DNA of 52,325 nt from an uncultured bacterium (GTDB taxonomy: Bacteria; BMS3Abin14). A program made the position numbers and the translations under genes. The DNA is taken from the NCBI GenBank assembly GCA_965603295.1, contig CBFDCL010000002.1, positions 1 to 52,325 of the forward strand, read 5' to 3'. Positions within the stretch are counted from its first letter, which is position 1. Each line of letters begins with the position of its first letter. Below the pieces are notes generated by a model, which was not told the DNA's origin, did no database searches, and worked only from the letters and a program-made list of their open reading frames with translations. Of this stretch, positions 44,837 through 51,938 are shown piece by piece.

Positions 44837-46129
44837 ATGTTCCTTCCCTACGGAGAAGATTTTCTTGAACTGCCGGACCTGTGGGACGGCCGGGCCCTGC
44901 GGGTGGAGCCGGGACCTTTCGATGCCGAAGGGGGTCGGGAGGCCGTGGAAAAGGCCCTGGAAGAACCTGTGGGATCACCGGCTCTGCACGACCTGGTTCG
45001 TCCCGGGGAAAAGATCGCCTGCGTCATACCGGACCTGACACGCCGGGCGGGAGTGGACACCTACCTGCCGCTTCTTCTTTCCCGACTGATATCCAGCGGG
45101 ATCAGGGCCGAGGATGTGACTGTGGTCGTGGCGCTGGGGATTCACAGACCCCTTGACGAAAAGGAAATCGAAAAGTTGGTGGGAGATAGGGTCCTGGACC
45201 GGTTCAAAGTTGTCAACCATGATCCGGATTCCATCGAGGAGAACCTTCCCCTGGGCGTTACGGACGGAGGGGTCCCCGTCCAGATCAACCGGAACGTGGC
45301 TGCGGCTGACAGGGTGATCCTGACGGGCGGCATCTCATACCATTACTTCACTGGGTACGGGGGAGGCAGGAAGGTTCTTCTGCCGGGCGTGGCGTCACGC
45401 CTCTCCTGCCAGAGTCACCATCGGATGGTCGTTTCATGGCGGAGGAAGGAACTCGGGGGCACCCTTGCCCCTGGAGTCCTGAAAGACAACCCCATACACC
45501 GGGAGATGCTTCAGGCGTGTTCTTTCGTTGGCCCCATTTTCCTCCTCAGCACGATCACCGATCCCCGGGGGAGGATCATCGACGCTTTTTCCGGAGATCT
45601 CCGACAATCCCACGCTGAGGCGTGCCGGGCCCACGACCGGTTCTACCGGAAGGAGATCCCGGCCCCATCGAGTCTGGTTATCGGAAGTGCCGGCGGATTT
45701 CCGAAGGATGTCAACATGGTCCAGGCCCACAAGTGTTTGTATGGTGCCCACATGTCGGTTATACCCGGAGGGGCAGTGGTTCTCTTTGCCAAGTGTAGTG
45801 AGGGTGCCGGGTACCATGATTTCTTCTCGTGGTTCTCCCTCTGCAGGACCGAGGAGGACTGGCTGAGGGAACTGGACCGGCAATACCATATCAACGGTCA
45901 GACCGCCTTTTCAACCTGGCTCAGGGCCAGGACCACCCCGACAATCCTCGTGAGCAGCCTGGATCGGGAGGACGTCAGGTCGACAGGGATGATCCCCGCC
46001 AGCGGCGTGGACGAAGCGATCTCCCTTGCTCGCGGTCTCCTCGGGGATCTGCCCGTTCCTATTATCCTGCCGGATGCTGGAGAAACGCTGACTGTAATAA
46101 GGAGTCCAAAGTCTAACGTCCAAAGGTAA
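44837..46129 (+). CDS. larA: LarA-family nickel-pincer (NPN) dependent 2-hydroxy-acid racemase/epimerase
   Basis: LPYG, PDLTR, ALGIHR, HYFTGYGGGRKVLLPG (cofactor-binding Lys motif), SHH, FPKDVNMVQAHK. Confidence 0.88.
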   Translation: MFLPYGEDFLELPDLWDGRALRVEPGPFDAEGGREAVEKALEEPVGSPALHDLVRPGEKIACVIPDLTRRAGVDTYLPLLLSRLISSGIRAEDVTVVVALGIHRPLDEKEIEKLVGDRVLDRFKVVNHDPDSIEENLPLGVTDGGVPVQINRNVAAADRVILTGGISYHYFTGYGGGRKVLLPGVASRLSCQSHHRMVVSWRRKELGGTLAPGVLKDNPIHREMLQACSFVGPIFLLSTITDPRGRIIDAFSGDLRQSHAEACRAHDRFYRKEIPAPSSLVIGSAGGFPKDVNMVQAHKCLYGAHMSVIPGGAVVLFAKCSEGAGYHDFFSWFSLCRTEEDWLRELDRQYHINGQTAFSTWLRARTTPTILVSSLDREDVRSTGMIPASGVDEAISLARGLLGDLPVPIILPDAGETLTVIRSPKSNVQR

Positions 46130-46378
46130 AGAACTGACGCGAAGAACGGGAGACGCGGGGAAAAACAAATCCAAGGTCCAAAATCCAGGATCCAAGAAAA
46201 CTATGGTGATTTGTGCCTAGTGACTGGTAATTGGTAAAACCGATAAAGAACTCCTAATCACTAATCACGAATCACTGATCACTGCATTCCCGCAACTTCA
46301 AACCTCAAACTTCGTACTCTCAAACATACAAACCCGGGTTTCTCCCTCTGGACCCTGGATTCTTTTTCTCTGGACTCG
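46104..46378. repeat. Intergenic repeat mosaic R7 with nested inverted blocks
   Basis: GTCCAAA, TCCAAGG/TCCAGGA, GTGACTG/GTAATTG, inverted AATCACT/GATCACT, CGCAACTTCAAACCTCAAAC, CTGGACC/CTGGATT. Confidence 0.88.
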
Positions 46379-46382
46379 CCTC

Positions 46383-49133: not shown

Positions 49134-50587
49134 TGAAAAATAAAAATCTGCTTTCCCGAAGTCCGGTCATGGACAAAGGGATCCTTGCCCAGGTTCGGGG
49201 AATCGTTGGCAAGGAAAACTGCTCCGACCGCCGCGAGGACCTGTTCCTGTACGCTTACGACGGGATGAATCGACGCTATCTGCCGGATATGGTCGTCCAT
49301 CCCATGAACACAGCCCAGGTTTCGGCTATCCTGAAGCTGGCAAACGAGAAGGGTTTTCCCGTGGTCCCCCGCGGCGCCGGAAGTGGCCTGACGGGGGGAT
49401 CGCTGCCCGTTAACGGCGGTCTCGTGGTGACCACGCAGAACATGCGGCGGATCCTGGAACTTGACGAGGACAGCATGACCGTCTGGGTCGAATCAGGCCT
49501 CCTGAACGTTGATCTTCAGACCGAAGTCGAAAAGAAAGGGCTCTTTTTCCCGCCCGACCCGGCGAGCATGAACTTTTCCACCATCGGCGGGAACGCCGCG
49601 GAGAACGCGGGAGGGCCGCGGGCCGTCAAATACGGCGTCACGAGGGATTACGTCCTTGCCCTGGAGGTGGTTCTTCCCACCGGAGAGGTTATTCGGACAG
49701 GATCGTCCGCCATCAAGAGCGTTACCGGATATGACCTCACCGGGCTGATGATCGGGTCGGAGGGGACGCTGGGTTTCATAACCCGGCTTCTCCTGCGCCT
49801 CCTCCCCGCCCCGGAAACCGTTGGAACCCTCCTTGCCGCTTTCCCGGACCTGCACATGGCCGCAAAGGCAGTAGCGCACATCATGGCCAGCAGGGTTATC
49901 CCCTCCACCCTGGAGTTTATGGACCGGGCCGCGGTGGACTGCGTCAGGGATTACCTGGACATGGAACTGCCTGAGGACACCTCTGCCCTCCTCCTTGTAG
50001 AGGTGGACGGCAGCGGCATATCCGTCGAGAGCGAAGCAAAAACCCTGGAGAAAGTCTGCCGGGAGATCGGCGCCGGCATGATCCTCAGGGCCCGCAGCGA
50101 AGAAGAAAGGGAATCCATGTGGACGGCCCGGAGGTCCATCTCCCCTGCCATTATGAAGATCCGCCGGTTGAAGATCAACGAGGATGTGTCCGTCCCCCGA
50201 ATGAAGATCCCCGACCTTATATCCGGGATCGAGGGGATCTCCCGGTCACGGGACGTCAGGATCGTCAATTTCGGGCACGCCGGGGACGGGAATGTCCATG
50301 TTAACGTCCTCGTGGACCCGGACGATGCCGATGAAGTGTCCCGGGGGCACGGGGCGGTGAGTGACATCTTCCACCTGGTCGTTTCACTGGAGGGGTCTCT
50401 AAGCGGGGAGCACGGCATCGGGATTGCCAAGGCACCCTTCCTCGGGGTGGAACTGGATCAGGCGGCCATTGAGGTGATGAGGAAGATCAAGAGGGCTCTG
50501 GATCCCAGGGACATCCTCAACCCCCATAAAACCTTCGATTTTGAACCGGAATCGGCCGAAAGGGAGATCCCGCGCAGCTATGAGTGA
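49130..50587 (+). CDS. glcD: FAD-linked D-2-hydroxy-acid oxidase subunit (GlcD / D-lactate dehydrogenase type)
   Basis: VPRGAGSGLTGG, FPPDPAS, TIGGNAAENAGG, KYGVTRDYV, GSEGTLG, GHAGDGNVH, SGEHGIG. Confidence 0.9.
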   Translation: MMKNKNLLSRSPVMDKGILAQVRGIVGKENCSDRREDLFLYAYDGMNRRYLPDMVVHPMNTAQVSAILKLANEKGFPVVPRGAGSGLTGGSLPVNGGLVVTTQNMRRILELDEDSMTVWVESGLLNVDLQTEVEKKGLFFPPDPASMNFSTIGGNAAENAGGPRAVKYGVTRDYVLALEVVLPTGEVIRTGSSAIKSVTGYDLTGLMIGSEGTLGFITRLLLRLLPAPETVGTLLAAFPDLHMAAKAVAHIMASRVIPSTLEFMDRAAVDCVRDYLDMELPEDTSALLLVEVDGSGISVESEAKTLEKVCREIGAGMILRARSEEERESMWTARRSISPAIMKIRRLKINEDVSVPRMKIPDLISGIEGISRSRDVRIVNFGHAGDGNVHVNVLVDPDDADEVSRGHGAVSDIFHLVVSLEGSLSGEHGIGIAKAPFLGVELDQAAIEVMRKIKRALDPRDILNPHKTFDFEPESAEREIPRSYE

Positions 50588-51938
50588 TGCCAAGGGATCC
50601 CCATCCAGCCTTGTCAGAGACTGCAGCCAGTGCGTCAAGTGCGGGACCTGCCAGTATGTCTGTCCCGTTTATTCGGTCCGTCCGGAGGAATCCATGGCCC
50701 CCAGGGGAAAGATGGCTCTCGTGGAAGCGGTCTCCCAGGGGCACCTCAAGGGCACCTCGCGATACAAGGAATATCTGGAAACCTGCCTTCTCTGCGGTGC
50801 GTGCGAAGAGGCCTGTCCCAACAACGTCGAGACCCTTTCGGTCATGTTCCAGGGAAGGGAGAACGTTCCCGGGGGGATTCGGCTGAGGACCCTGAAGGGG
50901 TTGGTCCTTAAATACCTTCTCGGGGCGGTGAACCTGTTTCGTTACGCCATGAAGGCGGGCCGGACCTTCCAGTATTTTCTCTTCAGGAAGGTCCCGTCGT
51001 CTTCGGGTATGAGAAGGCGGTTCCCCATGCCGGTGATCACCAGCGACCGGACTCTTCCCGTCCTTTCCAGACGTTTTTTCCGGGATCACAACCGTGGGCA
51101 GGTCACGGAGGGGACGGGGCCCCGGGTTGGGATGTTCACCGGGTGCGCGGCGAACTATTTCTACACGGAGGTCAGCGATGCCATGGTGGGCATCCTCGGT
51201 TGGCTCGGAATCAGGGTCATCGTTCCCCCGGAACAGGTGTGCTGCGGCCTGCCGGCTTTTGCCGGAGGGGCTTTTTCCACGGCCCGGGATCTGGCCCTTA
51301 AAAACCTTGAGGCGTTCGAGAAGTACGACCTCGACACCATCGTGACGGGGTGCGCCTCCTGCGGCAGCAACCTGACCCACAACTACACCGACATCCTCAC
51401 CCGCGCCGGGGTGGACGAGGATCGTGCCGAGAAGTTCCAGGCGAGCATCATGGACATCAACGTTTTTCTGTACCGGTCCGATCTGGTGGGGCGACTCAGG
51501 GATTTGGAATTCGAGGGGGCAAAGCCCCTAAAGGTTACCTATCATCACCCCTGTCATCTGGGGCGCCAGCAGGGCATCACCGAAGAGCCGGTGGAACTGA
51601 TCCGGGCCATGCCAGGGGTCGAGTACGTGCCCATGGACGAAGCAGACCGGTGCTGCGGCCTGGGGGGATCCTTCGGGGTGGAGCACTACGATATCTCAAA
51701 GGAAGTTAACGACCGGAAGAGCCGGAATATCGCCCAATCGGGAGCTGACGTCATCGTGACCTCCTGCCCGGGGTGCATCATGCATATCCGGGACGGCCTG
51801 AGGCGCAACGGCCATGAATCCATCGAGACTCTGCACATCATGGTGCTCCTGGAAAGGCAGCTGAGAAAGGCGGGGGCCTTAAAGACCGACGCGGGGAAGA
51901 GGGAACACGGAGACGCGTTGGGAATAGGAAAGGTTTAA
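50580..51938 (+). CDS. glcF: Fe-S subunit (GlcF type): two 4Fe-4S motifs plus two CCG domains
   Basis: CVKCGTCQYVCP, CLLCGACEEACP, CCGLP, GCASC, YHHPCH, CCGLGG, SCPGC. Confidence 0.9.
   Translation: MSDAKGSPSSLVRDCSQCVKCGTCQYVCPVYSVRPEESMAPRGKMALVEAVSQGHLKGTSRYKEYLETCLLCGACEEACPNNVETLSVMFQGRENVPGGIRLRTLKGLVLKYLLGAVNLFRYAMKAGRTFQYFLFRKVPSSSGMRRRFPMPVITSDRTLPVLSRRFFRDHNRGQVTEGTGPRVGMFTGCAANYFYTEVSDAMVGILGWLGIRVIVPPEQVCCGLPAFAGGAFSTARDLALKNLEAFEKYDLDTIVTGCASCGSNLTHNYTDILTRAGVDEDRAEKFQASIMDINVFLYRSDLVGRLRDLEFEGAKPLKVTYHHPCHLGRQQGITEEPVELIRAMPGVEYVPMDEADRCCGLGGSFGVEHYDISKEVNDRKSRNIAQSGADVIVTSCPGCIMHIRDGLRRNGHESIETLHIMVLLERQLRKAGALKTDAGKREHGDALGIGKV

Follow-up and report, generated by a model that had tools for sequence, protein, structure and literature searches.

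A LarA homolog beside a double malic enzyme and a GlcD/GlcF pair: most likely a racemase of the 2-hydroxyglutarate type in an uncultured bacterium

The last part of a 52,325-nucleotide stretch of DNA from an uncultured bacterium (GTDB lineage BMS3Abin14), referred to here as the window, carries a gene of the LarA racemase family followed by a double malic enzyme and by two genes of GlcD/GlcF type, and the question raised by this locus is which 2-hydroxy acid these enzymes handle, and whether they handle it together. The window comprises all of contig C2 of a 2.3-Mb assembly with a completeness of 98.8%. A first-pass annotation had proposed that both enantiomers of malate and/or lactate are funnelled to pyruvate and that LarA may be a malate racemase. 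Its description of the gene arrangement was right in every stated detail: larA (44837-46129, + strand), the double malic enzyme (46545-49133, +), glcD (49130-50587, +) and a glcF-like gene (from 50541 or 50580 to 51938, +) follow one another directly, with overlaps among the last three, and the cluster has no GlcE-type gene. The choice of substrate, in turn, had to be revised, as the residues of LarA indicate that it is most likely a racemase of the 2-hydroxyglutarate type, dependent on the nickel-pincer nucleotide (NPN) and akin to LarAH group 11.

The product of larA is, as anticipated, an intact member of the family, with both of its domains (PF09861, Lar_N, 190.4 bits; PF21113, LarA_C, 49.6 bits) and all of the catalytic and NPN-binding residues. 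Alignment to 8EZF, 5HUQ and Mar2 placed its residues R69, H103, H169, K179, H195, Q296 and K299 at the positions of R75, H108, H174, K184, H200, Q295 and K298 of the reference LarA, respectively, and these seven residues were invariant across 120 homologs. The cofactor genes on which the first-pass annotation had made its proposal depend were located elsewhere in the genome, larB and larC adjacent to each other on contig C28 and larE on contig C54, all of them scoring above the NCBIfam cut-offs (266 vs. 175 for LarB, 173 vs. 90 for LarC and 286 vs. 150 for LarE). The larB-larC pair (19031-21067 of its contig) sits between folD and folE. Sequences of larB and larC above cut-off were also detected in 14 of the 16 species-level genomes of the phylum, which all belong to a single family, including complete genomes with no LarA above the Pfam threshold, where merely Lar_N fragments of about 20 bits were found. 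Their presence in such genomes could point to a further user of the nickel-pincer cofactor that has so far gone unrecognised.

The specificity signature of LarA reads Y170, F171 and N353-G-Q355-T356. According to published work, the signature of 2-hydroxyglutarate racemases is Y, F, H/Q, T, and malate racemases have H/Q followed by Lys at the positions of W358/T359 of LarA, with the Lys holding the second carboxylate (PMC11770544), and the "NQT" motif is that of groups 7a and 11 and "GHK" that of the malate groups (PMC7583248). With G-Q-T in place of G-H-K, the carboxylate-binding Lys is missing from the LarA of the window. The Q-T pair was shared by 118 of its 120 closest database relatives, the two exceptions showing H-K. 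At the level of family models, LarA failed those of the malate racemases LarAH6 (NF052593; 343.5, cut-off 500) and LarAH5 (NF052595; 255.0, cut-off 462), as well as the LarAH10 model (343.2, cut-off 540) and the lactate racemase model NF033504 (247.4, cut-off 460). Two distant G-H-K homologs, analyzed as controls, passed NF052593 (594 and 534); an ortholog from the same phylum (313) and proteins of Geobacteraceae (397 and 387) fell short of it, as did the LarA of the window.

Phylogenetic placement pointed in the same direction. In a quick maximum likelihood tree (IQ-TREE; 52 rows, without the characterised LarAH7, LarAH32, Mar1, Mar2 and Lactobacillus plantarum LarA), the protein of the window fell in a phylum-specific clade of 15 rows (SH-aLRT 100), nested in a Q-T clade of 37 rows (SH-aLRT 96) that includes Citrifermentans bremense and Geomonas, and G-H-K proteins formed a separate clade (SH-aLRT 96). 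LarAH group 11, which includes Gbem_0565, GM21_0578, GM18_3791 and Gmet_3244, has been annotated as "HGR?" (Desguin 2020, PMC7583248), and LarAH32 of Geobacter metallireducens, with Q352/T353, was reported to racemise 2-hydroxyglutarate with a kcat/Km of about 1.5 x 10^4 and to have no activity on malate (Urdiain-Arraiza 2024, PMC11770544). The Geobacter homologs in the compared set have Gln at position 352, and LarA is equal to group 11 at 17 of 20 signature columns (Dataset S2). LarA is alike to group 11 and LarAH32 in domains, in catalytic and NPN-binding residues and in clade, from which it differs by belonging to a distinct, well-supported sub-clade limited to one small candidate phylum. 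Two other classes were considered and set aside: LarA did not group with sugar-acid epimerases, a placement that would have counted against the first-pass annotation, and the E, V, A, H signature is absent and NF052594 gave only 20 bits; nor is it a lactate racemase of group 1, which needs F, F, W, T/E/Q where LarA reads Y, F, Q, T, besides failing NF033504.

The gene neighborhood supports the relation to group 11. All members of this group (8 of 8 genomes) are associated with COG0277 (GlcD-like) and COG0247 (iron-sulfur (Fe-S) oxidoreductase) genes (Desguin 2020, PMC7583248). The order larA-glcD-glcF was confirmed by Pfam in C. bremense and was found in 21 loci, mostly from Desulfuromonadales; among loci with flanks of 3 kb or more in both directions, glcD was located within 5 kb of larA in 16 of 35 Q-T loci and in none of the seven G-H-K loci. 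Moreover, the best match of the GlcD of the window was the copy adjacent to larA in C. bremense, Geomonas diazotrophica and ORM2a (three of the four Desulfuromonadales-type genomes tested), scoring approximately 502-507 bits, as compared with 366-417 bits for the paralog ranked next, so that the GlcD genes are orthologous by this best-hit test. The glcF-like product was 53-58% identical within the phylum, and 35-40% identical, along its entire length, to the product encoded just downstream of larA-glcD in the 21 loci. The order [pdxA-solute-binding protein]-larA-(double malic enzyme)-glcD-glcF recurs in genomes of the same phylum. The link between LarA and a D-2-hydroxyacid dehydrogenase pair that the first-pass annotation had noticed recurs both within the phylum and in the 21 loci of Desulfuromonadales type, and exceeds chance; as larA of this type also precedes orthologs of glcD and glcF in another phylum, a functional link is hard to deny. 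The true conserved partner of the racemase is GlcD/GlcF, and the malic enzyme is a lineage-specific neighbor. Compared with group 11 loci, which have the same GlcD-type and Fe-S/CCG genes downstream, the window differs in the double malic enzyme placed between larA and glcD and in the pdxA and solute-binding protein genes upstream; the gap between larA and glcD is approximately 70-200 nt in most Geobacteraceae loci, whereas in the window larA is followed by a 415-nt spacer with a hairpin. As a side observation, the Q-T larA of Deferrimicrobiaceae (L034, 8408-9217) has a component of a CbiQ-type cobalt/nickel transporter just upstream, and not glcD-glcF; overall, the neighbors of Q-T LarA in Deferrimicrobiaceae and Schekmanbacteria (CbiQ, a LeuA-like gene, PHP and PNPOx domains) were uninformative.

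What the dehydrogenase may oxidise was approached through its residues. GlcD consists of FAD_binding_4 and FAD-oxidase_C domains, and the glcF-like gene encodes a GlcF/GlpC-like Fe-S subunit with a 4Fe-4S dicluster domain (Fer4_8) and two CCG domains (127.6 bits). GlcD matched glycolate oxidase with 324 bits, LctD with 315, LDHD with 270 and human D2HGDH with 200.8, and remained below the equivalog cut-offs (TIGR00387, 484.6 vs. 567.9; NF008408, 338 vs. 897); the GlcF-like protein scored 155 vs. 333 with the GlcF model NF008434, and its top NCBIfam match was the lactate dehydrogenase Fe-S subunit LdhH, far below cut-off. A GlcDEF glycolate oxidase was rejected, since no GlcE is present in the cluster and all models were below cut-off. 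The residues that bind the metal, the C1 carboxylate and the C2 hydroxyl (R334, H383, H390, E427 and H428) were present and conserved in 28 of 28 orthologs, and this set of one Arg, two His and a Glu-His pair is common to human D2HGDH (PDB 6LPN), mouse LDHD (8JDC) and glycolate oxidase GlcD. The distal pocket (S338, K348, N350 and N392) was also identical in the 28 orthologs, from the phylum and from larA-linked copies elsewhere, and was absent from two GlcDs that adjoin other LarA types. The distal carboxylate is bound by T390, K401, Y432 and N443 in D2HGDH (PMC7801405), and the distal pocket of LDHD (W351, S365 and I407) is hydrophobic (PMC10589216). S338 and N392 match T390 and N443 of D2HGDH in kind, and Ser and Asn are found where LDHD has W351 and I407. 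As judged from these residues, the distal pocket of GlcD appears polar and basic, which favors a D-2-hydroxy-dicarboxylate (2-hydroxyglutarate or malate) over lactate or glycolate.

A precedent for this combination of subunits is YdiJ of Escherichia coli, in which a GlcD-like FAD (flavin adenine dinucleotide) domain and a GlpC-like Fe-S domain form a proven D-2-hydroxyglutarate dehydrogenase (PMC9504171). The same set of modules (GlcD-superfamily FAD and GlpC-like Fe-S/CCG) is shared by the YdiJ proteins of E. coli and Pantoea (PMC9504171) and by the window, where it is divided between two genes instead of forming one protein of 1018 aa, and the tie between D-2-hydroxyacid oxidation and 2-oxoglutarate would be common to both; with 148 bits vs. 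a cut-off of 1350 for NF049975, the likeness is an architectural analogy, making the split GlcD/GlcF a plausible counterpart of YdiJ and not a member of its family. No function assigned to the GlcD/GlcF partner of group 11 LarA was found in the literature searched. Elsewhere in the genome, an adjacent pair of a distant GlcD-like (27% identity) and a GlcF-like (23%) gene was detected at the end of contig C129 (1-2413, - strand), with different residues in the GlcD-like pocket (I, K, D, T).

These residues also bear on lactate, the other substrate named in the first-pass annotation. In that case LarA would racemise lactate, GlcD/GlcF would be a D-lactate dehydrogenase of the Desulfovibrio type, and pyruvate would proceed to acetyl-phosphate through the product of pta. 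The D-lactate dehydrogenases of Desulfovibrio are pairs of GlcD and Fe-S proteins encoded near pta, and the window has a pta gene 4 kb upstream; the resemblance of GlcD to LctD and LDHD, and of the GlcF-like protein to LdhH, distant as the latter is, would fit as well. The signature of LarA, however, is not F, F, W, T/E/Q and its score with NF033504 is 247 vs. 460, the distal pocket of GlcD appears polar and not hydrophobic, with Ser and Asn at the positions of W351 and I407 of LDHD, and no lactate permease was seen in the annotated part of the window (22579-51938), all of which makes a lactate module very improbable.

The case for malate brings in the malic enzyme. Under this alternative, LarA would be a malate racemase, L-malate would be converted to pyruvate by the malic enzyme, and D-malate would either undergo racemisation or be turned by GlcD/GlcF into oxaloacetate for decarboxylation by the malic enzyme. 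Several observations agree with it: the malic enzyme adjoins glcD and is translationally coupled to it; a malic enzyme neighbor aided the identification of Mar2 (15% association, group 6); Mar2 (LarAH6, PDB 6D6Z), alike in fold family and mechanism, is the nearest solved structure of the LarA family by sequence (191.6 bits); and the polar basic pocket of GlcD would suit D-malate as well, which is also oxidised by human D2HGDH (PMC7801405). Yet, in LarA a Thr (T356) occupies the position where malate racemases have Lys, both malate racemase models failed to recognise it while recovering the G-H-K controls in the case of NF052593, it belongs to a clade distinct from that of G-H-K proteins, and the characterised LarAH32, of the same signature type, lacks malate activity.

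Furthermore, the malic enzyme turned out to be a poor clue to the substrate. No other malic enzyme is encoded in the genome, the fusion is found beside glcD-glcF in relatives without larA, and in three other lineages it occurs apart from all three genes. Within the phylum it is a single open reading frame (ORF) of 855-860 aa in the relatives and of 862 aa in the window, with a likely start at ATG 46551. The two halves of the window protein are 52% identical to one another and both contain complete malic and Malic_M domains. In the N half YTPGV is kept, with Lys replaced by Arg, HDD by HND and NN by NS; in the C half the Lys, ED, DD and NN are kept and YTPGV reads YLPPE, so that from its residues each chain is predicted to have one fully equipped site at most. 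The alignment of 35 double malic enzymes showed that the halves degenerate in a complementary fashion. The N half has an invariant YTPGV but has lost NN, and its HDD is mostly HN(D/H); at the position of the catalytic Lys, Arg is found in 11 of 11 members of a group with 70-86% identity to the window protein (presumably this phylum) and Lys in 23 of the remaining sequences. The C half has an invariant Lys, HDD and NN, but its YTPGV is always YLPPx. Such complementary loss of motifs suggests a single working site per chain or a regulatory pseudo-half. With respect to small prokaryotic NAD(P)-malic enzymes (PDB 5CEE and 2A9F), the C half is close, scoring 418 bits with 5CEE and retaining the Lys, Asp-Asp and Asn-Asn motifs, and the window protein differs in being a fusion of two modules with complementary degeneration. 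Outside the phylum, many lineages have double malic enzymes of 835-880 aa with 54-60% identity, NC10, Nitrospinae and Desulfobacteraceae among them. A metagenome scan with the double malic enzyme alignment retrieved mostly single malic enzymes and three informative double loci from other lineages, none of which had glcD, glcF or larA within the available flanks, and no description of a tandem malic-enzyme fusion was found in a limited full-text literature search. The operon of malic enzyme, glcD and glcF thus occurs only in this small phylum and independently of larA, and has no bearing on the substrate of the racemase; the double malic enzyme is the general malic enzyme of the organism, in a translationally coupled operon with glcD-glcF. 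Taken together, a malate racemase at this locus is distinctly unlikely.

The distribution within the phylum bears on whether the genes share a pathway at all. LarA was present in 9 of the 16 genomes, always encoded between the genes for the solute-binding protein and the malic enzyme, and the series pta-aminotransferase-pdxA-solute-binding protein-(double malic enzyme)-glcD-glcF was kept without larA in two genomes, one closed (G002) and one 98% complete (G004). A different arrangement was observed in genome G003 (C1:1587000-1605000), where the double malic enzyme has a truncated C-terminal half, the match ending at about residue 296 of that half, and no glcD or glcF is present within 6.7 kb downstream, yet larA and the genes for the solute-binding protein, PdxA, aminotransferase and Pta are in place; operon decay or rearrangement may account for it. 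The locus could represent inherited synteny of unrelated genes of central metabolism, with larA inserted in a permissive gap and acting on another 2-hydroxyacid: the backbone is made up of the same genes with or without larA; larA, pdxA, the malic enzyme and the glcD-glcF pair each occur in one copy or nearly so; and larA has its own flanking spacers. As all 16 genomes come from one family, conservation among them is weak evidence and leaves room for this explanation. It hardly accounts for the finding that, in another phylum, orthologs of glcD and glcF come directly after larA of the same type, or for the 8 of 8 group 11 genomes in the literature, and we therefore consider it unlikely, with a small but real probability.

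Among the readings weighed, we favor, with fair confidence, a module in which L- and D-2-hydroxyglutarate would be converted to 2-oxoglutarate by LarA and GlcD/GlcF; the substrate, the direction of flow and the electron acceptor are predicted from the gene content, catalytic and signature residues, clade, synteny and cofactor genes observed. A number of points weigh against it. LarA differs from group 11 at 3 of the 20 signature positions and is just 40-43% identical to it, and we infer that the assayed LarAH32 is Gmet_3244, an identity that the texts consulted do not state. glcD is near by in merely about half of the Q-T loci, and in the window 415 nt and a terminator-like hairpin part larA from the dehydrogenase operon. 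The persistence of glcD-glcF in genomes without larA means that their co-function is not obligatory. Regarding the dehydrogenase, GlcD is overall nearer to glycolate oxidase and LctD than to human D2HGDH; in a mapping of the pocket made by pairwise alignment and residue offsets only, N350 stands at K401 of D2HGDH, K348, which precedes it by two residues within one strand, stands at V399, and F381 stands at Y432.

In the proposed module, LarA would interconvert L- and D-2-hydroxyglutarate by proton-coupled hydride transfer, involving His103, His169 and the NPN bound to Lys179 and produced by LarB, LarC and LarE. GlcD, as a D-specific, metal-dependent flavoprotein, would oxidise D-2-hydroxyglutarate to 2-oxoglutarate, and electrons would pass from it to the GlcF-like Fe-S/CCG subunit and on to a downstream acceptor. 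The 2-oxoglutarate would enter central metabolism, for example via the nearby aminotransferase. GlcD-GlcF would be the constant element, probably acting on D-2-hydroxy-dicarboxylates generally (D-2-hydroxyglutarate, perhaps D-malate), and larA an optional extension giving it access to the L-isomer. L-2-hydroxyglutarate arises from promiscuous malate and lactate dehydrogenases and from lysine breakdown, and D-2-hydroxyglutarate is a by-product of PdxB. D-2-Hydroxyglutarate is also a by-product of SerA (PMC9504171), and these reactions are suggested sources of the substrate.

A more tentative extension, possible in our view but held with limited confidence, is that GlcD/GlcF with group-11-type LarA could represent an unrecognised class of Fe-S-linked D-2-hydroxyglutarate (D-2-hydroxy-dicarboxylate) dehydrogenases, a split counterpart of YdiJ that emerged within the glycolate-oxidase/LctD branch as its distal pocket was remodelled (to Ser, Lys, Asn and Asn). 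In two steps, the racemase and this dehydrogenase would return both enantiomers of 2-hydroxyglutarate to 2-oxoglutarate, and in this phylum the coupling to a pseudo-heterodimeric double malic enzyme might mean a physical complex oxidising C4/C5-dicarboxylates.

The final 12.4 kb of the window contain nine genes on the + strand, from pta to a tRNA-Met gene. The phosphate acetyltransferase gene pta (39892-40953, +; PTA_PTB, 375 bits; TIGR00651, 353.9 vs. a cut-off of 311) belongs to the conserved backbone of the phylum, occupying the same place in relatives, a position that does not by itself show membership of the pathway. It is followed by a class I aminotransferase of the aspartate-aminotransferase type (41207-42397, +; Aminotran_1_2, 252 bits), whose top NCBIfam matches were aspartate transaminases, all below cut-offs, and whose relatives are 72-79% identical; it is likewise a backbone gene and a possible consumer of 2-oxoglutarate. 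The next gene, pdxA (42430-43503, +; TIGR00557, 382 bits vs. a cut-off of 290), gave the only PdxA match in the whole genome, is probably a housekeeping gene, and overlaps by 16 nt the gene for a periplasmic solute-binding protein of the Leu/Ile/Val type (43488-44675, +; Peripla_BP_6, 137 bits). The latter has a signal peptide, with a hydrophobic N-terminal leader ending in ALA-EVP, and matched solved amino-acid binders with only about 62 bits. This gene was the least conserved of the backbone (34-53% identity), was retained in relatives without larA, and is an orphan, with no ATP-binding cassette (ABC) permease or ATPase genes near by.

Regarding the organization of the transcription unit, larA begins 161 nt after the binding-protein gene and ends 415 nt before the malic enzyme, with no gene overlap. 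Within this spacer (46130-46544), which contains repeated AATCAC-like words, a consensus scan found a terminator-like hairpin (46504-46527, +; 10 pairs, 7 of them GC, then CTGTTTTTTG), located with its T-run 8-10 nt 5' of the ribosome-binding site of the malic enzyme; it could be a terminator of larA or an attenuator. The spacer could not be aligned with the equivalent spacers of the related loci L009 and L010, an Rfam scan of 40900-52325 returned the tRNA only and no riboswitch in the spacer, and promoter-like sites in a sigma-70 scan were not above those of shuffled sequence. Downstream, the TGA of the malic enzyme (49131-49133) overlaps the ATG of glcD at 49130 (ATGA), and the stop of glcD (50585-50587) lies inside the glcF-like gene. 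Of the two possible starts of this gene, TTG 50541 and ATG 50580, the latter is the more plausible, with AAGGGAG located 13 nt upstream. The unit closes with the tRNA-Met gene (52117-52193, +; ARAGORN; Rfam tRNA, 65.3 bits), behind which the terminator scan placed a strong terminator-like hairpin (52201-52226).

For this larA, the "nickel-dependent lactate racemase" of annotation pipelines and the "malate racemase" derived from context are both probably wrong, and the locus illustrates that, in the assignment of LarA homologs, signature residues and synteny across phyla carry more weight than the nearest neighbor. No new principle is involved, as the family of the racemase, its signature and the linkage to both gene families had already been published; what is new here is a divergent member (40-43% identity) in a nearly unstudied phylum and the lineage-specific insertion of a malic-enzyme fusion. 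If true, the proposed role of GlcD/GlcF would bring the forms of bacterial D-2-hydroxyglutarate dehydrogenase to three, this one being Fe-S-linked. The physiological role of 2-hydroxyglutarate racemases was left open in published papers (PMC7583248, PMC11770544); if GlcD/GlcF is a D-2-hydroxyglutarate dehydrogenase, that role would be the clearing or use of L-2-hydroxyglutarate.

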